Counted from the first letter of the stretch, positions 11,240 through 30,797 are shown. The stretch is 64,000 nt of DNA from an uncultured Candidatus Binatia bacterium (GCA_965243855.1 CBDEWE010000003.1:4750909-4814908), one strand, 5' to 3'. Notes: generated by a model not told the origin, from the letters alone. Made by a program: numbers and translations.

Positions 11240-11360
11240 AATACCCCGTAGGAGACTGAAATGATAAACGGCTCGAAGGGCACTGTCCAGGAAGCCAATG
11301 TCCCGTTCTCACAAGGGCAAGCTAAGGAGGCGGGCGGGCCTTCCATTCTTCTGAGAAAAA

Positions 11361-13610
11361 ATGAATAACCCTGGTATGAAATTCCATCGAAGGCGGTGTG
11401 GAGGAGTGCTGTCCTGGGTTGTGTTGCTGTGCGCCGCTACGCTGCTGCCGTCTGACGTGCTTGCCCAGCCGCAGCACACGCTCGAAGATATTACCGTCAC
11501 GGCCCGTAAGCAGGAGCAGCGCGCATTCGATGTGCCCTTATCGCTGTCCGTGCTCCAGGACGAGGGGCTCGACCGGTTGCGCTCGTCGGGTATGGACGTG
11601 CGTTTTCTGAACAACCGCGTGCCCAGCCTGCAAGCCGAGTCGTCCTTTGGACGCTTCTTTCCCCGATTCTACATACGCGGCTTGGGCAATACCGACTTCG
11701 ATATGAATGCGTCTCAGCCGGTCTCGGTGATGTACGACGGGATTGTGTTGGAGAACTCCCAACTCAAGAGTACCCCGGTTTTTGATATCGAGCGGATCGA
11801 GGTGTTGCGCGGACCGCAGGGGACGCTCTTTGGGCGTAACACCACCGCCGGTGTCATCAAGATCGAGTCGGCCCGTCCGACCTGGGACTGGGAGGGCTAT
11901 GGCCGGTTGTCCTATGGACGATTCAACAGCGTGAATTTTGAGGCGGCACTGTCCGGTCCGCTGATCCCGTCCGTCCTGGCGGCGCGGGCCTCGGTGCTGG
12001 TCCAGCGTCGGAGCGACTGGGTAGACAACACCTACACTGACGAGGATAACGCCCTGGGCGGCTATCGCGATGTGGCCGGACGGCTTCAGTTTTTATTGAC
12101 GCCGACCGAGAATCTGTCCGGGCGGTTCAAGGTCCATATTCGCGACTTCGGCGGCACGCCCCGCCTCTTTCGGGCGAATGTGCTTAAGCCGGGCCAGGCC
12201 GACCTGGTTTCGGGCTTCCGACGCGACAAAATCGCCCATGACGCCGACGGTGACGCCGGGGTGAGCGGCCACGGCTTCGCCTCCGAGTTGCACTACACGC
12301 TTGGGCCGGTCCGGCTGATCTCGCTGACTGGTGGGGAATGGCTCGACAGCTTCGCAAGCGGCGATATCGACGGTGGCTATGGTGCGGTCTGGAGTCCGCC
12401 CAGCGGGCCGGGCCTGATTCCGTTTCCGGCCGAGACTGAGGACGGGATATCGGCTCTGCGTCAGTTAAGCCAGGAGGTTCGTCTGGAACACACGGCCTGG
12501 CAGCGCCTGGACTGGCGGGTGGGTGTCTTCTATTTCCACGAGGAACTCGACATGTTCGGCCTCAACTACGACACCCTGGCTGGGAATGTCGTGAATGGCC
12601 GTATCCGCCATGAGCAACGCACCGAGGCGTGGGCCGTGTTTGCCGGGGCAACGCTGAGCATCACCGACAATCTCGAAGTCGCCGCCGGCGTGCGCGTCTC
12701 TGAGGACGACAAGGAATACCGTATCGAACGGCTACAGTCGCCCATTGGAGCCGGACCGCTGGGCCCGCTCCACAAGGCCCCCCGCGACCTGGTGCCGAGT
12801 TGGGACCTGAGCCTGCGCTACCAGCCGCGGCCCGGCGTCCAGCCCTACGTCCGCGTGGCCAGCAGCTTTCGCGCGCCCAGCATTCAGGGCCGGTTGCTGT
12901 TCAGCGACGAGGTGACTGTGGCCGACACCGAGGACATCATCTCGGTCGAGGTCGGCCTGAAGACGCGCCTGTGGCAGCAGCGGCTCCACCTTGATCTGGC
13001 GGCCTATCATTTCTGGATGAACGATCAACAACTCACCGCGGTGGGCGGCGATGCCAATGTCGCCCGCCTGGTGAATGCCGACCGTACCATCGGACGGGGG
13101 GTTGAGGCTGAGCTGGCGCTGGTCCTGGCCCGAGGCCTGCGCTTTACCGCCGGCGCCAGTTACAATTATACGCGGCTTGACGACCCCGGTCTGTTCATCC
13201 CCCCGTGTGGCGCGGACTGCACCGTCCTGGACCCGCCCGGACCGGTGCCCGGTACCGTGTCGATTGACGGCAACCGGCTGTACCAGGCACCACGCTGGAT
13301 TGTAAATTTCAGTCTGGACTATACCCGCGTGCTTGCCGGTGGCTCGACCCTGATAGCGTCCACCGATTGGGCCTACCGCAGCCGTATTAACTTTTTTCTG
13401 TACGATTCGCGAGAATTCCGTGACGATCACCGGCTTGAGGGCGGGGCACGCGTGGCCTGGGTGTCGCCTTCCGGTGTCCTGGAAGTCGCGGCCTTTGGCC
13501 GTAATATTCTGAACGACACCTCTCCCGCCGGTGGCATCGACTTCAACAACCTGACCGCCTACATCAACCAACCGTCCTACTGGGGTGTTGAAGGGGTCGT
13601 GCGTTTCTGA
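11361..13610 (+). CDS. TonB-dependent outer-membrane receptor
   Basis: 749 aa. Signal peptide, plug domain (DITVTARKQEQRAFDVPLSLSVL), beta-barrel, C-terminal aromatic residue (..VVRF). Confidence 0.85.
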   Translation: MNNPGMKFHRRRCGGVLSWVVLLCAATLLPSDVLAQPQHTLEDITVTARKQEQRAFDVPLSLSVLQDEGLDRLRSSGMDVRFLNNRVPSLQAESSFGRFFPRFYIRGLGNTDFDMNASQPVSVMYDGIVLENSQLKSTPVFDIERIEVLRGPQGTLFGRNTTAGVIKIESARPTWDWEGYGRLSYGRFNSVNFEAALSGPLIPSVLAARASVLVQRRSDWVDNTYTDEDNALGGYRDVAGRLQFLLTPTENLSGRFKVHIRDFGGTPRLFRANVLKPGQADLVSGFRRDKIAHDADGDAGVSGHGFASELHYTLGPVRLISLTGGEWLDSFASGDIDGGYGAVWSPPSGPGLIPFPAETEDGISALRQLSQEVRLEHTAWQRLDWRVGVFYFHEELDMFGLNYDTLAGNVVNGRIRHEQRTEAWAVFAGATLSITDNLEVAAGVRVSEDDKEYRIERLQSPIGAGPLGPLHKAPRDLVPSWDLSLRYQPRPGVQPYVRVASSFRAPSIQGRLLFSDEVTVADTEDIISVEVGLKTRLWQQRLHLDLAAYHFWMNDQQLTAVGGDANVARLVNADRTIGRGVEAELALVLARGLRFTAGASYNYTRLDDPGLFIPPCGADCTVLDPPGPVPGTVSIDGNRLYQAPRWIVNFSLDYTRVLAGGSTLIASTDWAYRSRINFFLYDSREFRDDHRLEGGARVAWVSPSGVLEVAAFGRNILNDTSPAGGIDFNNLTAYINQPSYWGVEGVVRF

Positions 13611-13644
13611 CGACGGGTGCGAACCGGGCCGGTGCCGCAACACC

Positions 13645-15936
13645 ATGAGAGAGAATACGCTGCCACTGCGCGACCCTACCTGGAGCCTCGCGTCACTGCT
13701 GACCAGACTGGCGGTGACAGACCGCGCGCGCCGGCTCGGCGGGTGGGTCGTGGCGTTGTGGGCCGGGTTGCTGCCGTCTGTCGTGCTCGCTCAGCCGCAG
13801 CACGCGCTCGAAGATATTACGGTCACCGCCCGCAAGCAGGAGCAACGCGCCTTTGACGTGCCGTTGTCGCTGTCCGTGCTCCAGGGCGAGGGGCTCGACC
13901 GGCTACGCGCCTCGGGTATGGATGTGCGTTTTCTGACCAATCGAACGCCCAGCCTCCAGGTCATGTCGGGTTTCGGACGTGTCTATCCGTATTTCTTTAT
14001 CCGTGGTCTGGGCAATACGGACTTCGACATGAATGCCTCCCAGCCGGTGTCGATCATGCACGACGGGATTGTGCTGGAAAACCCGTGGCTCAAGGGACAT
14101 CCCATCTTTGATGTCGAGCGGGTCGAGGTGCTGCGTGGACCGCAGGGCACGCTGTTTGGGCGGAATACGCCGGCCGGCATCGTGAAGGTCGAATCGGCCC
14201 GTCCGACCTGGGGGTGGGAGGGCTATGGTCGGTTGTCCTACGGACGGTTCGACAGCGTGAATTTCGAGGGGGCGCTGTCCGGTCCGCTGATCTCGTCTGT
14301 CCTGGCGGCACGCGCCTCTCTGTTGGTACAGCGCCGGAGCGACTGGATAGATAACACCTATACCGGCAAGGACAACGCCCTGGGTGGCTACGATGACATT
14401 GCCGGCCGCATCCAGTTTGTGTGGACACCGGTGGAGAATTTTTCCGGGCGGTTCAAGGTTCATGTCCGAGACTTTGACAGCAATGCCCGGGTCTTCCGGG
14501 CGAATATATTCAGGCCGGGCCGCACCGGTCTACGCCCAGGGCTACGGCGCGACAAAACTGCCCAGGACGCTGGCAATCCGCAGTACCTGGCGAGCCACGG
14601 GTTTGCCACCGAGCTGCACTATACCCTGGGCGAGTTCCGCCTGATCTCGCTGACCGGTGGGGACTGGCTGGACGGCAGATCGCGCGGCGACGTGGACGGT
14701 GGCTATGGTGCGGTCTGGAGTCCGCCCAGCGGGCCGGGTCTGATTCCGTTTCCAACCGAGACGGCCGACGGCCTCTCGGCTCTGCGCCAGTTGAGCCAGG
14801 AATTCCGCCTGGAACACACGGCCTGGCAACGCCTGGACTGGCGGGTAGGCTTCTTTTACTTCCACGAGGAACTCGACATCGAGGGTTTCAGCTATGACAC
14901 CCTGGCCGGGAGTGTACTGAACGGCCGCATCCGTCAGGATCAACGCACCGAAGCCTGGGCCGTGTTTGCCGCCGCTACCTTTACCCTGACCGAAAATATC
15001 GAACTGGCTGCGGGTGTGCGTGTCTCCGAGGACGACAAGGAGTACGCGAGTGAGCGTCTTCAATCGCCCATTGGTGCCGGTCCGCTCGGTCCCATCCATA
15101 GGGCTCCCCGCGACCTGGTACCGAGCTGGGACCTGAGCCTGCGTTATCAGCTGCGACCTGGCATTCAGCCCTATGTGCGAGTGGCCAGCAGCTTTCGCGC
15201 TCCTAGCATCCAGGGCCGGTTGCTGTTCGGTGACGAGGTGACCGTGGCCGACACCGAGGACATCATCTCGGTCGAGCTTGGTCTGAAGCTGCGTGTGTGG
15301 CAGCAGCGTGTCCATTTGGACCTGGCGGCCTATCATTTCTGGATGCACGATCAGCAGCTCACCGCGGGGAGCGGTGTGGACAATGCCAACCGGCTGCTGA
15401 ACGCCGACCGCACCATCGGACGGGGCATCGAGGCGGAGGGGACCGTGGCCTTGGGCCATGGGCTGCGCCTGACGGCCGGCCTGAGTTATAACTACACCCG
15501 GCTCGACGATACGGGTCTGTTTGTTCAGCCGTGCGGTTCGGACTGTACGGTCCTTGACCCGCCCGGCCCGGTTCCAGGTACGGTCTCCATTGACGGCAAC
15601 CGTCTGCCTCAAGCCCCCCGCTGGATCGCCAACCTGAACCTGAGCTATACGCGCGTGTTACCCAGCGGTGCGGCCTTGATCCTGGCGACCGACTGGGCGT
15701 ATCGCAGCCGCATCAATTTCTTTCTGTACGAGTCGCGCGAGTTTCGCGACAATCATCTGCTTGAGGGCGGCCTGCGCCTGTCCTGGCTGTCGGCCTCGGG
15801 CGGTCTGGAAGTGGCCGCCTTTGGCCGCAACATCCTGAACAACGTCTCGCCCACCGGCGGCCTCGACTTCAACAATCTGGCCGGCTACGTCAATGAGCCA
15901 CCGGTGTGGGGCATAGAAGCGGCGGTACGCTTGTGA
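13645..15936 (+). CDS. TonB-dependent outer-membrane receptor (tandem paralogue of the upstream gene)
   Basis: Starts MRENTLPL at 13645. Shares long identical blocks with the 11361 gene (for example SGFASELHYTLG, AVWSPPSGPGLIPFP). Confidence 0.85.
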   Translation: MRENTLPLRDPTWSLASLLTRLAVTDRARRLGGWVVALWAGLLPSVVLAQPQHALEDITVTARKQEQRAFDVPLSLSVLQGEGLDRLRASGMDVRFLTNRTPSLQVMSGFGRVYPYFFIRGLGNTDFDMNASQPVSIMHDGIVLENPWLKGHPIFDVERVEVLRGPQGTLFGRNTPAGIVKVESARPTWGWEGYGRLSYGRFDSVNFEGALSGPLISSVLAARASLLVQRRSDWIDNTYTGKDNALGGYDDIAGRIQFVWTPVENFSGRFKVHVRDFDSNARVFRANIFRPGRTGLRPGLRRDKTAQDAGNPQYLASHGFATELHYTLGEFRLISLTGGDWLDGRSRGDVDGGYGAVWSPPSGPGLIPFPTETADGLSALRQLSQEFRLEHTAWQRLDWRVGFFYFHEELDIEGFSYDTLAGSVLNGRIRQDQRTEAWAVFAAATFTLTENIELAAGVRVSEDDKEYASERLQSPIGAGPLGPIHRAPRDLVPSWDLSLRYQLRPGIQPYVRVASSFRAPSIQGRLLFGDEVTVADTEDIISVELGLKLRVWQQRVHLDLAAYHFWMHDQQLTAGSGVDNANRLLNADRTIGRGIEAEGTVALGHGLRLTAGLSYNYTRLDDTGLFVQPCGSDCTVLDPPGPVPGTVSIDGNRLPQAPRWIANLNLSYTRVLPSGAALILATDWAYRSRINFFLYESREFRDNHLLEGGLRLSWLSASGGLEVAAFGRNILNNVSPTGGLDFNNLAGYVNEPPVWGIEAAVRL

Positions 15937-16027
15937 CGGGCGGTTCGGCATGGCTTTGCGGTGTTGCCAAACGGTTCGGGCTCAGGCAAAACGGAGCATA
16001 TCTTACGGAAGGAAAAGGAGGCAAAGC

Positions 16028-16324: not shown

Positions 16325-16360
16325 GAAGTAGCCTAACTATCGAAGAGGGACACGGCATAT
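16325..16360 (+). terminator. Rho-independent terminator
   Basis: gagggacacg-gcatat-cgtgtccctc followed by TTTTTGTTT, 15 nt after the ABM gene stop. Confidence 0.7.
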
Positions 16361-16440
16361 CGTGTCCCTCTTTTTGTTTGCGCGTATGGGAATGCTTGCG
16401 TAGTGTTGAGGTGAAAAGCCACACTCAGAACGAGGCTCTT

Positions 16441-16896
16441 ATGATGCTCGAAATTGACCCGGAGGCCAAACAAGGCGTCCAACTCGGTCCGGTGACGGTG
16501 ACCGCTGAGGATATTCAATCCTTTGCCGAGGCGATGGGCGATCTCAACCCGCTGTATACGGACGTTGAGGCGGCGCGCGCCGCCGGCTACCCGGACGTTA
16601 TTGCCCCCCCGATGTTCTGTATGCGGATGCGCGGCGGCAGAATGCTGCCCGAGGTCCCGCTCCCGTCCGGCTTCATGAGTCTGAACGCGGGACAGGAACT
16701 CGAATTCCACGACGAGATTATTGCCGGGCAGACCTATACCATTACCTCGCGTGTGGCCGATGTGTATGAAAAAACAGGCCGGAGCGGCCCTATGGAGATC
16801 ATTGTTCGGGAGTCAACGATTACGGATGCCGAGGAACGAACGATCGTGACGATCCGCGAGCGACAAATCGTGCGCTCACCGGAAAAGAAAATCTAG
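16441..16896 (+). CDS. MaoC-like hot-dog fold protein (N-terminal-type dehydratase subunit)
   Basis: 151 aa from ATGATG at 16441. FAS1/MaoC_dehydrat_N-like (PLYTDVEAARAAGYPDVIAPPMF). Confidence 0.7.
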   Translation: MMLEIDPEAKQGVQLGPVTVTAEDIQSFAEAMGDLNPLYTDVEAARAAGYPDVIAPPMFCMRMRGGRMLPEVPLPSGFMSLNAGQELEFHDEIIAGQTYTITSRVADVYEKTGRSGPMEIIVRESTITDAEERTIVTIRERQIVRSPEKKI

Positions 16897-16907
16897 GTCC
16901 AGGACTC

Positions 16908-17882
16908 ATGCGTATCAGTCTGGACCCCTGGGGGGGCGACTACGGCAGCCAGATCTCGACGCCACAGGCGGTCGATGAAGAACATTTCTCCGCCCAAGTT
17001 ACGGGACAGCAGGTTGAGGCCGGTCCGTGGCAGCCCCGGACACCAGCTCCCGAGCAGATGCCGAACATGACCGCGGTGATTGACGGTGTCATGCGGGTCG
17101 ATGCGCCCGCAGTCATGAGTGACGACGAGACGCGCTTTCTGGCCCTGTTCGGGTCGTACGCGGCCGGGGCGGTCGTTATTGACCGTCGTGTCGAGATTAT
17201 CGAGGAACAGCTCGACCGCCTCTTTATTGTTGGCGGGGGGCAATCCGGACAGGATGTGCTGGTCGCGGCCGGAACGGGTGGAAAGATTCCCATGCGCTAC
17301 CGGAGCATGAGCGTGTCGGACCTCACCCCGGATTCCTTACGTGAAAGCCTCCTGACTGCAATGCGGCAGGCCGAGGTTGATTTGGCCCGAAAGCTGTCTG
17401 GGAACGAACGTCTCATACTTGCGGACGGTAATCTGACCTTTTTAGGCGATAGCTCCTCAGTTGTTGGGGTCATCAAGACGATTCAACGGATGTACCTTGC
17501 GCCCAAAGAGGCAAAAATTCTCGAACAGCTTCAGCCGGGTGAACGAACACCGTTGTTCCAATTCTCTGGCAGTAGCAGGCGAAAAAGTTTTGAGGTGTTC
17601 ACCTGTTATCTGCGTTTGGCGAATCCGCGACCGATCGAGCATCCATTTACCGGACTGGTGCGCTTAGAAGTGAAGCTTGGACTTGGTATTCAGCAGGCGG
17701 TCATGCTGTTAGATCAAGCCGCACATGCGGTTTCGGCTCTGGCCTCCCGCGCGCCAAAAGACCCCCGCGCCCCTCAAAATTTGATTCCCATCGGTGGACT
17801 AGAGCGACGGTTGCGGCACCGGCTGGGTGACCCCAAGCTGGTCCGGCGGTGTATTGAGAAGGCCCTCCTGAACCAGGTATAG
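16908..17882 (+). CDS. NurA-like nuclease (RNase-H-fold, predicted)
   Basis: 324 aa. AVIDGV motif resembles the NurA catalytic (V/I)DGS motif. Placement 20 nt upstream of a HerA-like ATPase is the canonical NurA context. This is an inference without HMM support. Confidence 0.5.
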   Translation: MRISLDPWGGDYGSQISTPQAVDEEHFSAQVTGQQVEAGPWQPRTPAPEQMPNMTAVIDGVMRVDAPAVMSDDETRFLALFGSYAAGAVVIDRRVEIIEEQLDRLFIVGGGQSGQDVLVAAGTGGKIPMRYRSMSVSDLTPDSLRESLLTAMRQAEVDLARKLSGNERLILADGNLTFLGDSSSVVGVIKTIQRMYLAPKEAKILEQLQPGERTPLFQFSGSSRRKSFEVFTCYLRLANPRPIEHPFTGLVRLEVKLGLGIQQAVMLLDQAAHAVSALASRAPKDPRAPQNLIPIGGLERRLRHRLGDPKLVRRCIEKALLNQV

Positions 17883-17902
17883 CCAAACGGAAAGGAGAAC
17901 GC

Positions 17903-19597
17903 ATGGGGAGAGTCATCGGCACGCAAGACGCCACCCCACTTGAATTCTGGGTGTGGCTCGAAGAAGGCGAAGCTATTCAGGTTGATGATGCCATCGTGGT
18001 CGAGACCGACTCGCCAAACGGACCGCTGAAATTATTCGGCATGGTCGATATCGTCCGGGCACGCCATCAGGGATCGACGTTTGACTCCGACGTGGTTGAG
18101 GCGGAACGCGGTCTGCCCGTTGAACTCTCTATCGCCGCGCACGTTAAAGTGACCCGTTTGATGCCGGAGTATTATTATCCGCCGATGCCGGGTGACCAGG
18201 TCCGTACGGTCGAGGATGAAGAATTCGCGCAAGCCCTGTTCATGGACAAGATGGAGCGCAAGTTCCCGATCGGCCTGTCCCTGTCCGGCAAGGATGTTGT
18301 GTACGGCAACCTGGATTTTCTGAACGGTCGCAAGGGCGCGCATATGAATATCAGCGGCGTGTCCGGTATTGCCACCAAGACGACCTATTCCACCTTTCTG
18401 CTCCACAGCCTGCTGCACTGTGGGCATCTGACGGACGCGAAAAACACGCACGCGATTATTTTTAACGTCAAGGGCGAAGACCTGCTGTTCCTGGACAAGG
18501 CCAGTAACGTCATGCCCGTAGAAGAAGAAGCCCTCTACGCTCAACTGGGCTTGCCGGCGGAGCCGTTTGATTCGGTTCAATTTTATGTTCCACCGATGGA
18601 AAACGCTCGTGGTCCGATCATGCCCAAGGTCAGCTCCCGTAAGGCGGATGAGGTCACGCCATACTTTTGGACGGTTCGGGATTTCTGCCGGCAACGCTTA
18701 CTACGCTATCTGTTTTCTGAAGGCGGGGAAGATGCCTCCTTGCTGTCAGCCCTGACCTATCAGGTGGAACGCAAACTCCTTGAAGCAGCCGAAGACGCTG
18801 AGAAAGATGGTCCGGGTCCGGGTGTGTTGCTCCCCTTGGGAGAGGAGCTGGCAGAGGACGACAGTTCAGCCCCTCCGACCGAGGTTCGCGATTTTCCGAC
18901 CCTCCTCCGAGCGATGGAGGCCATTGCCAGTAATACCAACCATTCGCCCGGTACGGTCGGCGCGTTTATGCGTCGTCTGTACAGCGCGGAAGACAAGGTC
19001 GCGTATCTTATCCGTGACCCTGCGGACTCCGACGCGGCCCGGCACGCCATCAGCTGGCGTAACAAGCAGGTAACCGTGGTCAGCCTGAGCGGGCTGTACG
19101 AAGTTGGAAAGAGCTTCGTGGTGGGATCGGTATTGCAACAGATTCAGGAAGAAAAAGAAGCGACCGGATCGGCGGAACCCCTGTGTTTTATCGTTGTGGA
19201 CGAATTGAACCGCTACGCGCCCCGTGACGGCTGGTCTCCGATTCGAGAGCGGTTGCTTGAAATTGCCGAGCGGGGGCGGTCCAGCGGAACGATTCTGATT
19301 GGTGCGCAGCAGACCGCGTCCGAAGTGGAGCGGCGGATTGTTGCCAACCCTGCTTTTCGGATCGTTGGCCGGCTGGATGCCGCCGAAGCCGAGCGTGCCG
19401 AATATGGTTTTCTGCCGCCAACCTTGCGCAAGCGGGCCGCCATTTTAACCTCCGGGCGGATGATCGTGTCTCAACCCGACATTCCCACCCCAGTCCCGAT
19501 TAAGTTTCCTATGCCGGCCTGGGCGACCCGAGCGGACGAACAGAAACTGCCGTCCCCTACTTTGAAGCTGTCCCGAGTCCGAGAAAGCGAGTATTAA
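17903..19597 (+). CDS. HerA-like (FtsK/HerA-superfamily, DUF87) ATPase
   Basis: 564 aa. N-terminal HAS-barrel-like region (MGRVIGTQDATPLEFWVWL...). DUF87 core PIGLSLSGKDVVYGNLDFLNGRKGAHMNISGVSGIATKT. Walker B CFIVVDELNRYAP. The P-loop is non-canonical (SGIATKT). Confidence 0.65.
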   Translation: MGRVIGTQDATPLEFWVWLEEGEAIQVDDAIVVETDSPNGPLKLFGMVDIVRARHQGSTFDSDVVEAERGLPVELSIAAHVKVTRLMPEYYYPPMPGDQVRTVEDEEFAQALFMDKMERKFPIGLSLSGKDVVYGNLDFLNGRKGAHMNISGVSGIATKTTYSTFLLHSLLHCGHLTDAKNTHAIIFNVKGEDLLFLDKASNVMPVEEEALYAQLGLPAEPFDSVQFYVPPMENARGPIMPKVSSRKADEVTPYFWTVRDFCRQRLLRYLFSEGGEDASLLSALTYQVERKLLEAAEDAEKDGPGPGVLLPLGEELAEDDSSAPPTEVRDFPTLLRAMEAIASNTNHSPGTVGAFMRRLYSAEDKVAYLIRDPADSDAARHAISWRNKQVTVVSLSGLYEVGKSFVVGSVLQQIQEEKEATGSAEPLCFIVVDELNRYAPRDGWSPIRERLLEIAERGRSSGTILIGAQQTASEVERRIVANPAFRIVGRLDAAEAERAEYGFLPPTLRKRAAILTSGRMIVSQPDIPTPVPIKFPMPAWATRADEQKLPSPTLKLSRVRESEY

Positions 19598-19607
19598 GGA
19601 TACGGGC

Positions 19608-20783
19608 ATGAGGTTCCTTCACACCTCGGACTGGCACGTGGGCCGGACTATTCGAAATCGCTCGCGGATGGATGAGCACCGGGCGGTATTTACCGAGATT
19701 GTTGATATTGCTAAGCGCGAGCAAGTTGATGCTGTCCTGGTGACAGGTGACGTCTTTCACGAGCGGCGCCCGCCGCTTGCTGCCGAGGAATTGGTGGCGC
19801 AAACCCTGGCGCAACTCGCCCGCGACAATATCGTCTCTATCGTCATTCCCGGTAACCACGATGACGCCGCCCGCCTGCGCACTCTGAAACCGCTGGGTGA
19901 CTTGCTCCACGTCCATATGATGACGGATATGAGTGAAACCCCGTCGGACCTCATCGTTTCCATTCCCCAGCGGACTGGAGGAGAGCGAGCGCTGGTGAGT
20001 TGTCTGCCCTACCTGCATCCTCACCGCGTCCTGACTGCGGCCGAAGGAACCGACAAAAGCGAGAACGAGCGTCTGAGTGTGTATCAGAGTATGGTGCAGG
20101 ACTATCTCCGCGCCCTGGAGGAAGAGATGCTGCAAATGGACCCTAATGCGGTGTCCATCCTACTCGCCCACGCCCATGTTTCCGGGACGGAGTTTGGAGG
20201 GGGCGAATGGCGCTCAAGTGTCTTTCCTATCGATCCGGGGATATTTCCCAGTCAGGTACACTATGTAGCCCTGGGGCATATGCACCAGCCCCAAAAGGTC
20301 GGCGGGACACGGGCACAGGCACGTTACGCCGGATCGATCCTGCAAATGGACTTTGGCGAGCGGGGCCAACAAAAAAGCGTATATCTGATTGAGGCCCATC
20401 CGGGGAAACCGGCGGAGGTCTCACCGATTGCGCTGACCGCAGGCAAAGCCCTGCTGCGCCGGACGGGAAGCGCCGAAGAAATACTGTCACAGGCGGAAGA
20501 GTTCACCAATGCCTGGGTTGAGGTCGTCTTAAAGCCGGAAGGCCAAACGTCTGAGCTGATCGAGCAAATCCGAACGCTACCGGGCATAGTCTCGCTCCGA
20601 CTTGAAGAGACACAGGCGAGCGATTCCCTCAGCGAAGCGGCTCACGATCCGAAGGAGCGGCCCGCGGCGGAACTTTTCACCGACTATTACAAGTCAAAAC
20701 GCGGCACGGAGCCCGAGCCTCAACTCGTGTCCCTGTTTGAGCGGCTGTATCAGGAGGTCAGCACCGCGCGGGACGAGCCGTGA
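19608..20783 (+). CDS. sbcD: SbcD/Mre11-family nuclease
   Basis: 391 aa. Phosphoesterase motifs DWH (I), GDVFH (II), GNHD (III), LAHAH (IV), GHMH (V). Starts MRFLHTSDWHVG. Confidence 0.9.
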   Translation: MRFLHTSDWHVGRTIRNRSRMDEHRAVFTEIVDIAKREQVDAVLVTGDVFHERRPPLAAEELVAQTLAQLARDNIVSIVIPGNHDDAARLRTLKPLGDLLHVHMMTDMSETPSDLIVSIPQRTGGERALVSCLPYLHPHRVLTAAEGTDKSENERLSVYQSMVQDYLRALEEEMLQMDPNAVSILLAHAHVSGTEFGGGEWRSSVFPIDPGIFPSQVHYVALGHMHQPQKVGGTRAQARYAGSILQMDFGERGQQKSVYLIEAHPGKPAEVSPIALTAGKALLRRTGSAEEILSQAEEFTNAWVEVVLKPEGQTSELIEQIRTLPGIVSLRLEETQASDSLSEAAHDPKERPAAELFTDYYKSKRGTEPEPQLVSLFERLYQEVSTARDEP

Positions 20784-20826
20784 ATGCCAGACCCCAACCC
20801 CGAACCCCCAGTCCCCCATTAAAGTC

Positions 20827-23800
20827 ATGCGCCCACAGAAACTCAACCTCAAAAACTTCATGCCCTTTCGGGCGACAGGTGATCAGGGGCACGAAGTCGA
20901 CTTTTCGCAACTCGACCTGTTCTCCATTACCGGCCCGATGGCCAGTGGCAAGTCTGCGCTCATCGACGCTATGGTCTGGTGCCTGTATGGCCGTACCGCA
21001 CGCTATGGTACGGATTCAAAGGGAGTGATCTCGACCGGTGAGCAGACGTGTGAGGTCGCGCTCGATTTTACGCTTGGACCGCGTTGGTTCCGGGCCGTAA
21101 GACGAACGGGGAAAATCACGGACTCCGGTCTCAGCGAACGCGAAGGGGAAGAGTGGATACAGGATGCCTCCGGGTCTGCGCGGCTTACCAGACGGATTGA
21201 AGAGCTCCTGGGCCTCGATTTTGACAGCTTCACTAAAACCGTGATCCTTCCCCAAGGTCAGTATGCCGAATTTCTCACCAGCGAGCCAAAAAAACGGCGC
21301 GAGTTACTGGCGAAAATCCTGGAGCTTGGCGTATATTCCCGGGTGGCCGATCAGGCCAAACTTGTGGCTGATCGGGAAAAAACTCGAGCGGAAACACTGC
21401 GTGAAACTTTGGCTCAATACGCCGGTCTGAGTCAGGAGCATATTGCGCTTCAGAAAGAAGAACTTTCCAAGCTCAGCCAGCGCATTGAACAGGTTTCTCA
21501 GCAAGAAGAACGCTTGCGCAGTGTGACCCAACACGTCGATCACATAGCGGGCTTGCGAAGTCGTGTGACCGAGCTTCAGACCGAAGTGCAGACACGTACT
21601 CAGGAGAAAGAGTTGGCGCAAAAGAAGGCTGACAAGGCAACCGTCCAGGTTGCCAGCCTGACAGATGAATTGGCAAAGATTGGTCAGGAGCGAGAATCGC
21701 TAGGATACGACACGGCGAGGCACGAAGTTGTCAAACGTGCAGTTGCCCATCTCAAGGAATGGATGGTTGCCCGAAAGGGGACCGAGCAGAAGAACGCTGA
21801 ACAGACTCGTGTTCGGGAGGAAGTTGAGGCGCTTGCCCAAAAGATCGAGTCTCACACGCGGCAGGTCGAGCAAACGCGGTCTCAACATCAGGACTACACC
21901 GCCAGGTTTGAGCAGCTTGTTGCCGAAGCCGGCGACGTGACCACACTGACGGAAAAGTTTAGCGCGGCAAAGCGCTGGAAAGAACTGCAACAGGAACAAC
22001 AGCAACTGACCGCCCGGATAGCTTCTCTCCGTCAAAAACAGACCTCAACCCAACACACTCTGGATGATGTGAAGCAACAGGAAGCGGCGCACGAGCAGAC
22101 TACCCAAGAACTGAAAGAAAGAATCGACCAAGCGAAAAAAGACGAGCAGCAAAAGCGCCAACTGATGTCCGAAGCAGAACGCCTGGAGCAAGAACGACAA
22201 GAGGCCGAGAAGGTGAAAAAACAGGTGCAATCCGAATATGAGACCACCCGCACGGCGCTGAGCAGAGCGGAACAAGCGATGCAGCGCGCCCGGCACGATT
22301 GCGCTCAAGCCGAAGAACAAGAGCAGGTAGCCCGCGTGGCGCTTGAAGATACACAGCGCCGACACGAAGCCGCACATCTGCGAGAGACGCTTTACGTCGG
22401 TGAGGCATGTCCTGTGTGTCGGACAACTGTCAGCGAAGTTCCCGCCGTTCAAGAAGCGGGAGACGATTTGAAGGAACTTCAGGCTCAAGTGGAGCGTGCC
22501 AGACATGCAACCGAGCAGAAGCGTACCGAAGCGCAAAAAGCCAACATCGAGGTTACGGCCCTTCAGGTGAGGCTCGACACTGCGAAATCAGAACTTGAAG
22601 AACGCGGGCGGGTCCGGCAAGAAGTCCAAGCTCGATTCGTGGTGCGTTTCCCCGACTATATGTTTCCTTCCGAAGTCATTCAGGCTGTACAGACCCAGCA
22701 AGAAGAACTGAGCGTAGCGCTCAGAGACATGGAAGCTCAGGCCGCCTCTGCCGAGCGGGAAAAATCGAGACTGGCCGATCAACGGGAAACCGCACAACGA
22801 GAAGACACCCGGTTGAGTGAGGAACTGCGCGGGAGAACGGAAAGACTGGATACCAACACACAGGAGTCGGAGGTGCTTGGGCGTGATATTGCCGTCTTTC
22901 TCTCAAAGCATGAAGACCCTGAGCAGAGCGTGGCACAACGCCGGACTACGGTGATGCAGGCTGAGCAACGGATGAAGGAGGCAGAGAAGGCCTTGCGTCA
23001 GCTCGAAGCGACGCTTAACTCGTTCAAAACAACTCAGGTCCAGAAAGATGGTGACCTCAAATTGCTTGCCGCCGAGTACAAAGGCGCATTGCTCCGAGCC
23101 GAGCGCGAAGCGCAGGCCGTACGCACTTGCCTTGGTCTGGCGGAAGATGCGGTACTGCCACAGACTGAAGACGTAGAAAATGAACTCAAAGCGCTGTCGG
23201 ACAAGCAAACCCGGCACACGGATTTGTTGCAGCGTGAAGAAACCGCACGGGCGAGGCGAGAACAGGCTGAACGCCAATCCACCGAGTCACAGGCCGACCT
23301 TCAAGCCCGAACACAAATGCTGGAGGAGTCACAGAAGAAGCGGCAACAGGTGTCCAACACGATTGCAGAGGGGCGGGAAAAGCTTCGTGGGCTGATTGAG
23401 CAACACAACCTCACTGACACCGGCGAAGACGGAGAGCAGATCAAACCCCAACTTGAAACGGTTCGTGGACAGATGATGTCTCTCCAAGGACAACGCGGGC
23501 GTTTAGAGGTCGAACATGCCGAAGCAGAACGTCGTTGGCAGGAGAAAGAGCAAGAAGAAGAGAAGCTGCACGCTGCCGAGAGTGAAGAACGTCTGGCCTC
23601 GGACTTGCGCAAGCTCCTGGGCTCGGAATTTACCGATTTCTTGTCACGAGGAGCCATAGAGGCACTAATGCGCGATGCGTCCGCTCACCTGCAACGCCTC
23701 ACCCACGGGCGCTATGTGTTTGATATTGCGTATCGGGGACGGGCGATCACACTCCAGATTGTTGACCATGAGGATCAGCGCCGTGCCCGGCCTACCCATT

Positions 23801-24108
23801 CGCTGTCGGGCGGAGAGACGTTTTTAGCCTCGCTTGCTATTGCGCTCGCGCTCTCGCAAGGATTTCGGACCGTTGCGACCGGCCGGGCCGCCCAGACCTC
23901 AACCGAATGCCTAATTTTAGATGAAGGGTTCGGGACGCTGGACCGGGAAGGCGTACAGATGGTCACGGAAACCCTGCAAGAGTTGCGGGGCGAAGAGGGT
24001 CGGATGGTGGGCATTATTACCCATGTCGAAGAAGTCGCCGTGGCCATGCCCATGCGTATAGAAGTACGCAAAGGTGGCAGGACGAGTGAGATTACGGTAT
24101 CAGGCTAA
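20827..24108 (+). CDS. sbcC: SbcC/Rad50-family ATPase with coiled coil and zinc hook
   Basis: Starts MRPQKLNLKNF. Walker A GPMASGKSA. About 800 aa of coiled coil with a central CPVC zinc hook (EACPVCRT). ABC signature LSGGETFLASLA, Walker B ILDEGFGTLD. The track ORF from 20602 is a 5' overextension. Confidence 0.9.
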   Translation: MRPQKLNLKNFMPFRATGDQGHEVDFSQLDLFSITGPMASGKSALIDAMVWCLYGRTARYGTDSKGVISTGEQTCEVALDFTLGPRWFRAVRRTGKITDSGLSEREGEEWIQDASGSARLTRRIEELLGLDFDSFTKTVILPQGQYAEFLTSEPKKRRELLAKILELGVYSRVADQAKLVADREKTRAETLRETLAQYAGLSQEHIALQKEELSKLSQRIEQVSQQEERLRSVTQHVDHIAGLRSRVTELQTEVQTRTQEKELAQKKADKATVQVASLTDELAKIGQERESLGYDTARHEVVKRAVAHLKEWMVARKGTEQKNAEQTRVREEVEALAQKIESHTRQVEQTRSQHQDYTARFEQLVAEAGDVTTLTEKFSAAKRWKELQQEQQQLTARIASLRQKQTSTQHTLDDVKQQEAAHEQTTQELKERIDQAKKDEQQKRQLMSEAERLEQERQEAEKVKKQVQSEYETTRTALSRAEQAMQRARHDCAQAEEQEQVARVALEDTQRRHEAAHLRETLYVGEACPVCRTTVSEVPAVQEAGDDLKELQAQVERARHATEQKRTEAQKANIEVTALQVRLDTAKSELEERGRVRQEVQARFVVRFPDYMFPSEVIQAVQTQQEELSVALRDMEAQAASAEREKSRLADQRETAQREDTRLSEELRGRTERLDTNTQESEVLGRDIAVFLSKHEDPEQSVAQRRTTVMQAEQRMKEAEKALRQLEATLNSFKTTQVQKDGDLKLLAAEYKGALLRAEREAQAVRTCLGLAEDAVLPQTEDVENELKALSDKQTRHTDLLQREETARARREQAERQSTESQADLQARTQMLEESQKKRQQVSNTIAEGREKLRGLIEQHNLTDTGEDGEQIKPQLETVRGQMMSLQGQRGRLEVEHAEAERRWQEKEQEEEKLHAAESEERLASDLRKLLGSEFTDFLSRGAIEALMRDASAHLQRLTHGRYVFDIAYRGRAITLQIVDHEDQRRARPTHSLSGGETFLASLAIALALSQGFRTVATGRAAQTSTECLILDEGFGTLDREGVQMVTETLQELRGEEGRMVGIITHVEEVAVAMPMRIEVRKGGRTSEITVSG

Positions 24109-24148
24109 GGCATTCACTCTCTAGAAGAGATCGTTAAGGAGGAGGGTT

Positions 24149-25018
24149 ATGGCACTGCATTCAGCAACAGTCGGCTCTGTTGGACAACCGTTTGTCAGCG
24201 AAATCGATGCACGTTGGGTCATGTCGTACGCGGCCGGACTCGACGATTATTTACCCTGTTATATGGACACCTGCCGACCGGACGGGATCGTTGCTCACCC
24301 GCTCTTTCCGGTCTGTATCGAGTGGCCGGTCCTGCTCGCCATGCGAGACAGTGCTCTGAAACGGGAAGAGGCTCTGCGGGGTGTCCATGCCACACACGAC
24401 CTGGTGGTTCACCGTCTGATCCGGGCGGGTGAAAAGCTGACAACCCAGGCAACGGTGGCCGGCGTTGAACAGCGCAAACCGGGGGCTTATCAGACCGTCC
24501 GTTTTGATACTCGGGACGCCAATGGCCAGCTGGTCTGTTCGACCTGGTACGGAACGCTCTTTCGTGGGGTTGACGTCGAGGGGGAGAACATCCCGGTCTC
24601 CGACCTGCCGACCCCATTGGAACCGCTCGATGCAGCAACAAGAGCGGAGGCGGAAATCCCGGTGACGATTTCGGCCGGCGCGGCCCATGTCTACACCGAG
24701 TGCGCGCGTATCTGGAACCCAATTCATACCGATCCGGCGGTGGCCGAGCAGTATGGATTACCGGGGCTAATCCTGCACGGTACCGCAACGCTGGCGCAGG
24801 GTATCTCCTGCGTCGTTGCCCAGGAAACCGACGGCCATCCGGAACGGGTCAAACGGATCACCGGACGTTTTGGCGCCATGGTGTTCATGCCTTCGCGCCT
24901 GACCGTGCGGATCGTGTCACGGGAGGCGAGCGCGGAGGGCGACGTGGTGCGGTTTGAGATACGGACTGAGGAGGGCAAGCCCGCGGTGCGGGACGGGGCC
25001 ATTATTTTGGGAGAATAG
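24149..25018 (+). CDS. double hot-dog MaoC-like dehydratase
   Basis: 289 aa with two hot-dog halves. The C-terminal half carries the MaoC dehydratase motif (IWNPIHTDPAVAEQYGLPGLILHGT). Confidence 0.75.
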   Translation: MALHSATVGSVGQPFVSEIDARWVMSYAAGLDDYLPCYMDTCRPDGIVAHPLFPVCIEWPVLLAMRDSALKREEALRGVHATHDLVVHRLIRAGEKLTTQATVAGVEQRKPGAYQTVRFDTRDANGQLVCSTWYGTLFRGVDVEGENIPVSDLPTPLEPLDAATRAEAEIPVTISAGAAHVYTECARIWNPIHTDPAVAEQYGLPGLILHGTATLAQGISCVVAQETDGHPERVKRITGRFGAMVFMPSRLTVRIVSREASAEGDVVRFEIRTEEGKPAVRDGAIILGE

Positions 25019-25075
25019 AGTTGTGGGTAAATAAGAGTTCAGCCAATAAGGATACGGAGAAGGAGAGATAGGTGT

Positions 25076-26083
25076 ATGCAACGTGGACTGATTTTTCCCG
25101 GAGGTGGGATGTCGCAGCGCGACATGATGGTCGTGGCCAAAGAAGCCGAAGCGGCCGGCTTTGATTCTCTGTATGTCACCGAAGCCTGGCGTAGCGCCTT
25201 CGTGCCGTTGACCGCGCTTGCCCTGGCAACCGAACGGGTCCGGATTGGTTCCTACGTGCTGAACGCCTATGGCCGCAGCCCTTTTATTGCGGGTATGAGT
25301 GCGGTCGATGTGGATGAACTTTCCGGTGGACGGCTGCTGCTCGGGGTCGGCAGCGGCAACCGGCATATTAACGCCGAGTGGCAGGGTGTTCCGCATGAGA
25401 AACCCTACCAGAAAATGACCGAGTATATTGAAAACCTCAAACAAATCGTCCGTACCCCCGCCGGCTCGCGCGTCTCATACCAGGGCGAAATTCATACCAT
25501 GGACTGGGTGCCGGCAGTGACTCCCGTTCGCGAGAGCATTCCCATATACATCTCTGCCATTTTCCCCCGTATGGTCCGCGTCGCCGGCCGGGTCGCGGAC
25601 GGTATAGCCATGGGCGCGATATTATCCGCACCGTACGCGCGCAAGGTGATTCAACCTGCAGCCCGAAAATCTGCGGAAGAGGCTGATCGCGACCCGCATG
25701 CCCTCGGTTTTCTGATGGGCTCGTTTGTCTCGGTGCATGAGGAACGTGAGGTCGCCCGTCAGGCCGCGCGTGAAGCGATCTGCCGTCTCTTCTCCCCCCT
25801 GCCGCATCCGTACTACGAGTATATGCTGCGGGAGCAGGGTTTCTCGTCTGCCGCAGACGCAGCGTTGAAGCACGTACCTGAGGGAAATATTCAAAAAGCG
25901 GCAGAGGCTATGACCGACGAAGTGGTCGATACCGTTACCATCGCCGGGACCCCCGAAGAATGCCGCCGCCGTCTGGCCGAGTATGAAGGCGTGGTGGACG
26001 AGGTGATTTTTGTCAACGTGTCCTACGCGTCGGGAGCAGGCGCAGGCATGCTGGAGGGGTATCGGAAACTCATTCAGCTGTAG
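25076..26083 (+). CDS. luciferase-like monooxygenase (LLM) class flavin/F420-dependent oxidoreductase
   Basis: 335 aa TIM-barrel LLM signature (GFDSLYVTEAWRSAFVPLTALA...). Confidence 0.8.
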   Translation: MQRGLIFPGGGMSQRDMMVVAKEAEAAGFDSLYVTEAWRSAFVPLTALALATERVRIGSYVLNAYGRSPFIAGMSAVDVDELSGGRLLLGVGSGNRHINAEWQGVPHEKPYQKMTEYIENLKQIVRTPAGSRVSYQGEIHTMDWVPAVTPVRESIPIYISAIFPRMVRVAGRVADGIAMGAILSAPYARKVIQPAARKSAEEADRDPHALGFLMGSFVSVHEEREVARQAAREAICRLFSPLPHPYYEYMLREQGFSSAADAALKHVPEGNIQKAAEAMTDEVVDTVTIAGTPEECRRRLAEYEGVVDEVIFVNVSYASGAGAGMLEGYRKLIQL

Positions 26084-26154
26084 TGTCTCTTTCACCGACT
26101 CAAGGCTTTTACAGCGACAGTCCCTGCGACGTCCCGGCCTGGAGGCGTGTGGAT

Positions 26155-26892
26155 TTACACATCCGCAGTCAGGCTGGCCAAAGAGCCGGAGCGGGGGAGG
26201 GCGATCCAACCTTCCCGTTTGGCGGCCGCCATATGTTTCCGCGGAATGGGTTCGATCTGATCTGTGGCCGCAGCCCGAGCGATAAGAGCGGCCACGACCG
26301 CATCAAGCGCATCGTCGCTTTTCTCACACGCCTGCTGCGCGTTAACCGGCCAATCCAGCCGCGGTTTTGTGGCGCTAATCAACCGGCGTGTTACCACGCG
26401 TCGTTTTTCCTCACCCGGTTTCTTCTTATAGCCGGTGGAAGGGAAACCCCAGATATGTAGAGCGGCGGCGGGATACACCTCAACAAAGCGACCACGGCCA
26501 CTGCGATCAATCCGTCCTTTCTCAGAGAGCAAGCGGGCGGCGCGTATGGCCGTGACACCGATCAGGTCTGATGACACGCTCAACGGCCAGCGCTTGATGC
26601 GCGCACGCACGAAGTGATCCGTCGCGCGGTATCGGAGCGAAGCGGTGGAGACTGTCGGCCACACGTTCTGACGCTGGTGCGCGTAAACGGCGGCGGCGAA
26701 TGCGGTCGGCCAGCCGAACGGGGCGTCGATGCCGATCTTGTCCGAGCGGCCAAACATCTCCAGCAGTGTCGCGTCGTCCGCCCCACACCGAAGCTCACTG
26801 ATGCGGGCCTTCGGCTTGACCCATTCGATGAGGCAATACGCCGTGTTCTCCGGCTGCGCCGCCAAATCGACGCCGAGCGTCGTGTGTGGCAT
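26155..26892 (-). CDS. DUF429-family protein (predicted RNase-H-like fold)
   Basis: 245 aa. N-terminus LGVDLAAQP...T..C and a central GIDAPFGWP motif typical of DUF429. Confidence 0.55.
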   Translation of the reverse strand: MPHTTLGVDLAAQPENTAYCLIEWVKPKARISELRCGADDATLLEMFGRSDKIGIDAPFGWPTAFAAAVYAHQRQNVWPTVSTASLRYRATDHFVRARIKRWPLSVSSDLIGVTAIRAARLLSEKGRIDRSGRGRFVEVYPAAALHIWGFPSTGYKKKPGEEKRRVVTRRLISATKPRLDWPVNAQQACEKSDDALDAVVAALIARAAATDQIEPIPRKHMAAAKREGWIALPRSGSLASLTADV

Positions 26893-26955
26893 TCGGACAC
26901 CTTTGCGCCGCGTGAACTCGGACTCGTCCCTGATGCGCTGCTTCGATGTTCTGCG

Positions 26956-27336
26956 CTACTCGCTCTTGGCTTTCTTCTCGTCGATGCTATCGAACACCTG
27001 TTTGGCGATACGCAGGCCGTTGACGCCGACCGGCCAGCCGCCGTAGTGGGCCAGATGGATCATGATCTCGTTGATCTTGTCGCGGCTGATGCCGATGTTG
27101 AGCGCGCCGCGGATGTGAACCTTGAGTTCCGGGTCACGGCCCAGCACGGTCAGGGCGGCCATGGTAATCATTGAGCGCTCTTGAATGGCCAGGCCGTCCC
27201 GTCCCCAAATATCGCCGAACAGATTTTTTACAGTGATATCCAGAAAATCTTCGTGCATGCTGCCCGGTCGGGGTTCTACGCCGAAGAGCTCTTTCATCTT
27301 TGCCGCTCCCTTTTGATAGCGTTCGGAATCTGCCAT
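26956..27336 (-). CDS. carboxymuconolactone decarboxylase (AhpD-like) family protein
   Basis: 126 aa. CMD signature and the HLAHYGGWP motif. Confidence 0.8.
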   Translation of the reverse strand: MADSERYQKGAAKMKELFGVEPRPGSMHEDFLDITVKNLFGDIWGRDGLAIQERSMITMAALTVLGRDPELKVHIRGALNIGISRDKINEIMIHLAHYGGWPVGVNGLRIAKQVFDSIDEKKAKSE

Positions 27337-27355
27337 ATTCGCCTCCTTCTCCGTT

Positions 27356-27387
27356 GTTGAGATGCAGAATGGTTGAGATACAGAATA
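27356..27387. promoter_or_regulatory. tandem 16-bp direct repeat in divergent intergenic region (candidate operator)
   Basis: gttgagatgcagaatg followed directly by gttgagatacagaata, between the CMD gene start (27336, -) and the rhodanese start (27462, +). Confidence 0.3.
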
Positions 27388-27461
27388 CCCTTGCCCGGCA
27401 AGAGTCCGTTGTCTAGTATCAGACCGGCAGTTCTGTCGTCAAAACCGCAAAAGAGTGTCTG

Positions 27462-27782
27462 ATGTCTCCCGAAATCACCGTTCACGAACTCCAGGCCAAA
27501 CAAAACGCGGGTGCAGACTTTGTGCTGCTCGATGTCCGTGAAGCCGAAGAAGTGGCGCTGGTGCAGCTCCCGCACTCGGTCCATATTCCGATGGGCGATA
27601 TCCCCAGCCGTTTGCACGAACTCGACCCTGAGGCCGAGATTGTGGTCTACTGCCACCACGGGGTGCGGAGTCTGCGCGTAGTCCACTTCCTGCGCCAACA
27701 CGACTTCGCGCGGGCCGTCAATCTGGCGGGCGGGATAGACGCCTGGGCCAACGAGATCGACCCCCGTATGGCCCGATACTAA
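27462..27782 (+). CDS. rhodanese-domain sulfurtransferase
   Basis: 106 aa. Active-site loop VVYCHHGVRS (Cys followed by Arg). Confidence 0.8.
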   Translation: MSPEITVHELQAKQNAGADFVLLDVREAEEVALVQLPHSVHIPMGDIPSRLHELDPEAEIVVYCHHGVRSLRVVHFLRQHDFARAVNLAGGIDAWANEIDPRMARY

Positions 27783-27805
27783 ATCTGTAGTGAGATAGGA
27801 ACACG

Positions 27806-29041: not shown

Positions 29042-29116
29042 TTTGGGGATTGGGGATTGGCAAGGAGACGTTCCCCGGATCTCTCACTAAGAAGCGTATG
29101 TACGAAGGTATGAAGA

Positions 29117-30337: not shown

Positions 30338-30368
30338 GGGCGGTTGGTCTCCTCTGAAAAATCACCTG

Positions 30369-30797
30369 ATGCGATTCCCTTTGCATTTTCCCTTTTTGCT
30401 GGTTGGGTTTCTTCTGGTGTCCGGCGGTGCGGCAGGCCCGGCCCACGCCCAGCATGGCGGTCTACCTATAGAACTGTATGGGATGATCAGCTTTGCGCCG
30501 GGCAGTCAGGTCGTGACGCTGGCCGTGGGAAAGGGAGAGACGGTACGGTTTCGGGTACAGGATATAGAGAGCCGCCATGCCGATTTCTCGGTGATCAATT
30601 TTCTGTCCGAAATTCGTTATCGTGAGCCGGGCCTGTATATCAAGGGTCCGGCGCATTATGTGGACCTGTTACGCAAGGAAGAGCCCGAAAAACGTCTGCT
30701 CAAACTCACCGGTCTGTACTATTCGAGCGCCCGCAATTTTGTGCTGAGCCGGGTCCGGCCGGTCCGGCCGGGCGAGCAGAACGAGCGACCCTTCTAA
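30369..30797 (+). CDS. secreted hypothetical protein
   Basis: 142 aa. Signal peptide MRFPLHFPFLLVGFLLVSGGAAGPAHA. No recognisable domain. Confidence 0.45.
   Translation: MRFPLHFPFLLVGFLLVSGGAAGPAHAQHGGLPIELYGMISFAPGSQVVTLAVGKGETVRFRVQDIESRHADFSVINFLSEIRYREPGLYIKGPAHYVDLLRKEEPEKRLLKLTGLYYSSARNFVLSRVRPVRPGEQNERPF

Follow-up and report, generated by a model that had tools for sequence, protein, structure and literature searches.

A predicted bacterial DNA-end processing operon, nurA-herA-sbcD-sbcC, on the chromosome of an uncultured Candidatus Binatia bacterium

A stretch of 64,000 nucleotides (nt) from an uncultured Candidatus Binatia bacterium (GCA_965243855.1, CBDEWE010000003.1:4750909-4814908; hereafter, the window) contains four adjacent genes that raise the question of what an apparently archaeal-type gene set is doing in a bacterium. 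A first-pass annotation, made from the sequence alone, had offered two answers: a complete archaeal-style machine for the resection of double-strand breaks (DSBs), or a HerA-based nuclease module that had recruited SbcCD. The genes are predicted to encode a NurA-family 5'-3' nuclease of the bacterial (Deinococcus) type (nurA, 16908-17882, 324 residues), a hexameric double-stranded DNA (dsDNA) translocase of the FtsK/HerA superfamily, likewise of the Deinococcus type (herA, 17903-19597, 564 residues), an Mre11-family nuclease subunit of the bacterial SbcD type (sbcD, 19608-20783, 391 residues), and a Rad50-family ATPase (sbcC, 20827-24108, 1,093 residues). All four lie on the plus strand, separated by the gaps of 20, 10, and 43 nt that had been reported. 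We consider it probable that they form a vertically maintained chromosomal operon for DNA-end processing, and we weigh this reading below against an archaeal origin, a role in defense, and a role in DNA transfer.

The open reading frame (ORF) at 16908 encodes a NurA protein, as its AVIDGV motif (residue 56) had led the first-pass annotation to propose. Its product matched the Pfam NurA model (PF09376) with 40.3 bits (cut-off, 21; E = 3.3e-10), Deinococcus radiodurans NurA (DrNurA; PDB 7f6d_H) over the full length (E = 4.1e-26), and T. maritima TM1739 in PDB (E = 4e-6). Across 54 aligned complete homologues, D59, E156, and D173 were invariant, and D59 was aligned with D53 of DrNurA, the residue replaced in the nuclease-dead D53A mutant (PMC9960219). 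The protein is predicted to act as a 5'-3' nuclease stimulated by HerA.

The product of the ORF at 17903 was aligned with D. radiodurans HerA (DrHerA; PDB 7f6d_B) from residue 2 to residue 546 (E = 8.8e-134), with the N-terminal HAS barrel at residues 2 to 101, and a profile of the window HerA clade found DrHerA at E = 1.1e-184. No Pfam DUF87 (PF01935) match was obtained at E <= 0.01, and relatives of the protein likewise have no precomputed Pfam domain; evidently, the DUF87 model fails to cover this bacterial HerA clade. Membership in the HerA family is therefore based on the full-length homology to the D. radiodurans protein. The initial description of a HerA/DUF87 ATPase with an N-terminal barrel and a VVDELNRY motif thus holds for the HerA identity, the barrel, and the motif but not for the DUF87 match. 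The protein groups with HerA and not with conjugative ATPases, as no VirB4/TraC-type match was found in Pfam, NCBIfam, or PDB. Given the full-length matches of both proteins to structure 7F6D, we regard NurA and HerA as orthologous to the D. radiodurans complex.

This orthology extends to the active sites. The P-loop of HerA has the deviant sequence GVSGIATKT (residues 152 to 160; window positions 18356-18382), in which Thr replaces the usual Gly before Lys, and the pattern G152-x-S-G-x-A-T-K-T160 was invariant in the 54 homologues. The Walker B motif FIVVDE occupies residues 429 to 434 (VVDELNRY begins at residue 431); D433 and E434 were invariant in the same set and aligned with DrHerA positions 487 and 488, the sites changed in an ATPase-dead protein (PMC9960219). 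The D. radiodurans complex (DR_0836/DR_0837; PDB 7F6D, 7WRW, and 7WRX) shares with the window proteins the positions of the catalytic Asp, the Walker B motif, and the DNA-binding Arg, as well as the P-loop ATKT instead of GKT, and there, too, nurA precedes herA. At residue 397, the window HerA also contains GLYEVGKS, which looks like a canonical P-loop but lacks conservation and has probably arisen by chance. In contrast to the window, where sbcD and sbcC follow directly, work on D. radiodurans has treated the pair as an operon of two genes, nurA and herA, and its authors regarded a connection of SbcCD to HerA-NurA as an open question (PMC4663267).

Both subunits of SbcCD are present with intact catalytic motifs. 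SbcD exceeded the cut-off of the sbcd model TIGR00619 by a wide margin (179 versus 77.65 bits; E = 1.4e-52) and matched Pfam Metallophos and SbcD_C (1.8e-7 for the latter). All five Mre11 phosphoesterase motifs that had been reported for it were recovered (DWHVG, GDVFH, GNHD, H188, and GHMH), and residues D8, H10, D48, N83, H84, H188, H224, and H226 within them (D8xH10, G47D48, G82NHD85, H188, and G223HxH226) were invariant among the 54 homologues. SbcC likewise carries the annotated Walker A motif GPMASGKSA (residue 36), CPVC zinc hook (residue 528, midway along the coiled coil), and LSGGETF signature (residue 993), in addition to a Walker B motif, LILDE, at residue 1029; Pfam AAA_23 and SbcC_Walker_B were both matched over their cut-offs. 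The sbcC reading frame is open from 20602, and we placed the start at ATG 20827, residue 76 of the open frame, because every alignment to profiles and homologues starts at that point. SbcC was aligned over its full length to the sbcc model TIGR00618 (E = 3e-63) with a score of 214 bits, which lies under the curated cut-off of 478.5, as do the 244 to 278 bits of SbcC homologues in other phyla. In the SbcD score, the full-length SbcC alignment, the catalytic motifs, and the zinc hook, the pair resembles the canonical SbcCD of Escherichia coli and Bacillus, from which it differs in the low SbcC score and in its place within a nurA-herA operon, where the canonical pair stands alone. As to whether the herA-linked sbcCD is a second copy, the 11.85-Mb chromosome of Nonomuraea gerenzanensis, a cultured carrier of the block, gave divided results: the organism's own SbcD as the query found two places, and an unrelated Streptomyces SbcD found the herA-linked place only.

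The resemblance to archaea is clearest in gene content. In the herA-mre11-rad50-nurA operon of Sulfolobus and Pyrococcus, the four components are also adjacent and co-directional, and a HerA hexamer with a NurA dimer is the working unit; the archaeal genes share a transcript, and HerA is a binding partner of Mre11-Rad50 (PMC2288612). Acquisition of such a resection operon as a whole by horizontal transfer is a candidate explanation for the equivalent content of the window block, and bacterial herA-nurA is taken in the literature to be of archaeal origin (PMC5448004, PMC12977600). The window order, with nurA first, differs from the archaeal one. Blocks of Actinomycetota, in turn, have the order herA-sbcD-sbcC-nurA, which matches the archaeal order, herA-mre11-rad50-nurA, as in Sulfolobus SSO2251-2248.

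The proteins themselves point elsewhere. Window SbcD aligned with archaeal Mre11 models over its N-terminal ~90 residues only (41 to 63 bits), and window SbcC reached at most 82 bits on Rad50 models versus 214 bits on the sbcc model. When SbcD and SbcC of the window were scored together with those of blocks from Acidimicrobiia, Acidobacteriota, and Gemmatimonadota, the proteins from all four phyla reached 178 to 210 bits (SbcD) and 214 to 278 bits (SbcC) on the bacterial models, compared to 56 to 65 bits (Mre11) and 81 to 113 bits (Rad50) on the archaeal ones, a two- to threefold difference. The profile of the window HerA clade, which finds DrHerA, gave no match to archaeal HerA in PDB at E <= 1, and bacterial NurA and HerA have been described as structurally distinct from their archaeal counterparts (PMC9960219). 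As the bacterial model scores exceed the archaeal ones and archaeal HerA went undetected, the proteins are of bacterial lineages. Judged by these comparisons, the block is archaeal-like in gene content only, which is the part of the label "archaeal type" that can be retained. The G+C content of the block (0.56 to 0.59) and its G+C content at third codon positions (0.58 to 0.66) are also native-like, near the values of the neighboring genes or perhaps slightly lower, although they are not diagnostic for recent transfer. Wholesale acquisition from an archaeon is thus very unlikely; any transfer would have to be ancient, and the sbcCD part is of bacterial type.

The first-pass annotation had further held that NurA-HerA pairs are sporadic in bacteria, are usually unlinked to sbcCD, and would be unusual in a Gram-negative genome; the distribution of the block contradicts all three statements. 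With two conserved HerA peptides as the query and one genome per GTDB species, HerA relatives were encoded in at least 588 species-level genomes (588 of the 600 stretches among the matches listed). Among 1.84 billion cluster representatives, searched exhaustively, 310 matched at E <= 1e-30, and the number was 994 when the limit was E <= 1e-10. NurA, SbcD, and SbcC were then placed by tblastn in the best 80 loci, 75 of which were evaluable, with at least 1.5 kb of sequence downstream of herA. In 58 of these 75 loci, sbcD starts no more than 300 nt from herA, and in 8 more it lies farther away in the same locus, giving 66 of 75 with sbcD in the same locus as herA. Going by record titles, the surveyed loci belong to Binatia, Methylomirabilota, Acidobacteriota, Actinomycetota (mostly Acidimicrobiia), Chloroflexota, Myxococcota, Gemmatimonadota, Planctomycetota, CSP1-3, and some metagenome-assembled genomes (MAGs) labeled Proteobacteria; Cyanobacteriota are also among the phyla with loci, and several diderm phyla are represented. 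The comparison of related genomes that had been proposed therefore showed the four-gene linkage to be kept across many phyla. Two MAG contigs labeled "uncultured Enterobacteriaceae" (L015 and L016) encode HerA proteins 75 to 76% identical to that of the window; these contigs have almost certainly been misbinned or misclassified.

Linkage of sbcCD to nurA-herA is thus the rule in this bacterial HerA clade. The four-gene architecture has been described before in one species: Blesa et al. (2017) noted SbcD and SbcC homologues downstream of herA (hepA) in Oceanithermus profundus and read them as an archaeal-like architecture and function in DSB repair (PMC5448004). The O. profundus nurA-hepA-sbcD-sbcC block, with bacterial SbcD and SbcC past herA, has the same layout as the window block, although its host belongs to Deinococcota and not to Binatota. 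In that study, the arrangement was viewed as a secondary recruitment in one genus (PMC5448004); in contrast, our survey shows the linkage to be the majority state across many phyla. A paper of 2026 still confined bacterial herA-nurA to the Deinococcus-Thermus phylum (PMC12977600), and the present distribution suggests a module of wider occurrence than experimental work has assumed. In a literature search, we found no paper on a broad bacterial distribution of the four-gene block, with older papers incompletely covered, so that an earlier mention is possible. The locus itself is ordinary; what it adds is one more well-formed case of a known machine, from a lineage that is uncultured. Whether the four-gene module is the usual, possibly even ancestral, state of bacterial HerA-NurA, with Deinococcus and Thermus as derived exceptions, is a more doubtful proposition, which we put forward tentatively.

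Two gene orders account for the complete loci. The order nurA-herA-sbcD-sbcC was found in 34, the window included, and herA-sbcD-sbcC-nurA was found in 20, mostly from Actinomycetota. As both orders keep nurA, herA, sbcD, and sbcC together, selection appears to act on the linkage itself. The Acidimicrobiia loci (many of L040 to L087), as well as L088 and L090, combine the second order with SbcD and SbcC proteins that are nevertheless of the bacterial type. The four proteins co-vary in their pairwise distances (Spearman coefficients of 0.63 to 0.83 for the six protein pairs), which is evidence of co-inheritance only and does not separate transfer of the module from vertical descent. In six loci, again mostly from Actinomycetota, herA and sbcD are split by 1.5 to 3.3 kb of unrelated genes, encoding oxidoreductases (Pyr_redox and DAO), a deacetylase, and a MerR regulator. 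These inserts were considered as a possible conserved fifth component and rejected, being unrelated.

The closest relatives of the window block, with HerA identities of 90 to 97%, are found in Candidatus Binatia MAGs, several of which are complete chromosomes (complete Binatia assemblies with the block include OX638322.1, OY763426.1, OY729511.1, and OZ252051.1), and the block occupies the same chromosomal position among Binatia genomes whose HerA proteins are 78 to 97% identical. Within the Binatia-like group, mean identities were 0.84 for HerA, 0.78 for SbcD, and 0.66 for both NurA and SbcC, the two most divergent subunits. One Binatia locus (L012, 5619-10083; OX638322.1) encodes HerA and SbcD proteins 97% and 94% identical to those of the window but a NurA that is only 52% identical, and it has ~3 kb inserted between maoC1, the gene upstream of the block, and nurA, including a gene for a CesT-like chaperone; here, the nurA allele looks as if it had been replaced. 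Two metagenome contigs with 52% identical HerA (L006, 9033-17290, and L007) carry nurA-herA followed by the 504-residue C-terminal half of SbcC, which begins just before the CPVC zinc hook, and have no sbcD. These loci look like deletion remnants of the four-gene block.

Cultured organisms carrying the block include N. gerenzanensis (chromosome), Streptomyces sp. BB1-1-1 (linear plasmid NZ_CP134205.1), and Sphaerospermopsis kisseleviana NIES-73 (plasmid). In the records of these strains, HerA and NurA are named only "ATP-binding protein" or "hypothetical protein." Together with O. profundus, they would allow cooperation between the two halves of the module to be tested.

The conserved linkage across phyla supports such cooperation between SbcCD and HerA-NurA in bacteria, and its recurrence in two orders and many phyla is comparative evidence for joint work of the two complexes, the point left open for D. 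radiodurans (PMC4663267). The tight packing of the genes would couple the expression of all four subunits. In the mechanism that we propose from the protein families, SbcCD, the bacterial Mre11-Rad50, would recognize DNA ends or hairpins and, with the use of ATP, clear away termini that are blocked or structured. A HerA hexamer, pumping the duplex along its central channel, would then feed it to a NurA dimer docked on the HAS-barrel face, where the strands would be split and digested in the 5'-3' direction, leaving 3' single-stranded tails for RecA. Previous research has shown that D. radiodurans HerA-NurA forms a stable complex of a HerA hexamer and a NurA dimer, with a pin motif that splits the strands, and that it resects DNA ends in vitro (PMC9960219). 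Co-transcription, physical cooperation, and a role in repair are proposed for the window operon. If the four-gene module is indeed the usual state of bacterial HerA-NurA, the more doubtful proposition above, it would be a widespread and largely unrecognized bacterial end-resection machine beside RecBCD, AddAB, and AdnAB, and it may be the main such machine in lineages such as Binatia, Acidobacteriota, Acidimicrobiia, and Chloroflexota.

Several observations weigh against a DNA-end processing operon devoted to repair. Resistance of D. radiodurans to high doses of UV and to mitomycin C rose ~10-fold, instead of falling, when nurA-herA was deleted (PMC9960219), so the role of HerA-NurA in vivo is not simply one in repair. 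Thermococcus kodakarensis HerA-NurA degrades both strands, and the authors of that study doubt that it makes 3' tails or serves resection, suggesting degradation of foreign dsDNA instead (PMC12977600). In 9 of the 75 evaluable loci, nurA-herA or herA occurs without sbcCD nearby, which indicates that the HerA-NurA pair can work unlinked. Moreover, the region upstream of maoC1 contains no LexA/SOS box (patterns GAAC-N4-GTTC, CTGT-N8-ACAG, and GTTC-N7-GTTC).

The D. radiodurans phenotype, in which the knockout is not damage sensitive (PMC9960219), would also fit a block whose main task is anti-phage or anti-plasmid defense, SbcCD and HerA-NurA together destroying incoming linear or unprotected dsDNA. 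An antiviral role has been raised for archaeal HerA-NurA (PMC12977600), and there are analogies to HerA-based defense systems (Sir2-HerA and DUF4297-HerA; PDB 8xau, 9c1m, and 8ziq) and to SMC/Rad50-like defense ATPases (LmuB of Lamassu and JetC of Wadjet). As in Sir2-HerA and DUF4297-HerA, a hexameric HerA-family ATPase core would be paired with a nuclease or effector in the block. However, only weak similarity to these proteins was found, restricted to the C-terminal ATPase region (clade profile E values of 5e-4 to 0.015), the partners in the window are NurA and SbcCD, and no Sir2 or DUF4297 effector occurs among the neighboring genes. In PADLOC, the HerA C-terminal ATPase region weakly matched defense HerA models (1.4e-5 to 5e-3), but these matches span only ~110 to 150 residues, and NurA had no match at all. 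The PADLOC match of SbcC to LmuB (6e-29) reflects generic similarity of the SMC head and coiled coil, as full-length SbcC models score far better.

Defense-related genes do adjoin some of the surveyed loci. Locus L001 lies near a methyltransferase/ResIII/AAA_15 cluster; in L006, a 923-residue fusion of an OLD-like ATPase/TOPRIM and a UvrD helicase (Gabija-like) is encoded ~1.3 kb downstream, after two small ORFs; and the block on the Streptomyces sp. BB1-1-1 plasmid (L090, 1-6313) adjoins Wadjet-like genes (TIGR02680, TIGR02678, and DUF2397) and a gene for an ImmA/IrrE protease. The neighborhood in the window, in contrast, is purely catabolic, and the fixed chromosomal position across Binatia is unlike that of typical defense islands. 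The block is also nearly absent from plasmids and phages: among 72,556 plasmid records, 4 carry it, and one of these is in fact a chromosome; phage records gave two weak partial matches. These findings make a primary defense role unlikely, and with it the defense reading of the earlier suggestion, a HerA-based nuclease module that had recruited SbcCD. Nevertheless, linear foreign DNA could also be a substrate of HerA-NurA and SbcCD, as it is for RecBCD, and by this analogy the operon may have a dual role in repair and in the degradation of foreign DNA.

HerA-NurA might instead serve DNA transfer between cells or chromosome segregation, with sbcCD as a neighbor merely by descent. HerA is FtsK-like, a role in cell division has been proposed for it (PMC4663267), and HerA/NurA-like paralogues of Thermus have been implicated in transjugation (PMC5365140, PMC5448004). 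The window HerA, however, is orthologous to the repair-type DR_0837 and not to a TdtA-like paralogue, and no conjugation or secretion genes were present among the window ORFs scanned. Recurrence of the sbcCD linkage in two gene orders across phyla would also be hard to explain without a functional link. We consider a role in transfer or segregation highly improbable and retain DNA-end processing as the preferred function.

Features around the four genes are consistent with a single transcription unit. A good match to the Shine-Dalgarno sequence (GGAAAGGAG) precedes herA, and a terminator scan found no credible terminator inside the four-gene block. As first annotated, the block is wedged between two MaoC hot-dog genes. 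The upstream one, maoC1 (16441-16896, plus strand), encodes a HadA-like hot-dog hydratase subunit (Pfam FAS1_DH_region, 5.9e-30) and ends 11 nt before nurA with no terminator in between, so that the two are probably co-transcribed. The downstream one, maoC2 (24149-25018, plus strand), encodes a fused double hot-dog hydratase (Pfam MaoC_dehydratas, 6e-16, and FAS1_DH_region), starts 40 nt past sbcC, and is possibly co-transcribed with it. The last co-directional gene encodes a luciferase-like (F420-type) oxidoreductase (25076-26083, plus strand; Pfam Bac_luciferase, 4.1e-65), and a convergent DUF429 gene on the minus strand (26155-26892; 3e-28) closes the possible unit. Judged by spacing, the transcription unit may include up to seven genes (16441-26083). 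Its upstream boundary is likely a strong terminator-like hairpin at 16342-16373 on the plus strand. This hairpin, downstream of the TonB-receptor region, has a stem of 14 bp and then a T-run, and it is also kept in another Binatia locus (L008). A second putative terminator at 26384-26403 was rejected as the downstream boundary, as it falls within the DUF429 gene.

The two hot-dog genes are lineage-specific synteny outside the conserved module: among the surveyed loci, maoC1 precedes nurA only in Binatia/Methylomirabilota-like loci and is absent elsewhere, and maoC2 follows sbcC only in the closest Binatia genomes. A leader of ~60 nt upstream of maoC1 is conserved among these closest genomes only and therefore says little.

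Stable maintenance of the block is further suggested by its surroundings. Only short, chance-like direct or inverted repeats flank it, and no integrase, transposase, or defense gene was found among the ORFs scanned (window up to ~44400); with the stable metabolic context and the neighbor-like composition, these findings argue for a block that is not mobile. An Rfam scan of the whole window returned no RNA family. Two overlapping ORFs (6421-7098, 225 residues, and 7055-7981, 308 residues) gave no Pfam match at 1e-5. The remaining sequence on both sides (1-16000 and 26000-44400) is a dense catabolic region with genes for a cytochrome P450, three family-III CoA-transferases, several amidohydrolases, an amidase, and a Rieske ring-hydroxylating oxygenase. 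Luciferase-like (F420-type) oxidoreductases number five in all, four besides the one at 25076-26083. Two adjacent TonB-dependent receptors are encoded at 11361-15936, where the close relative L001 has PIN and PpoB2 genes instead.

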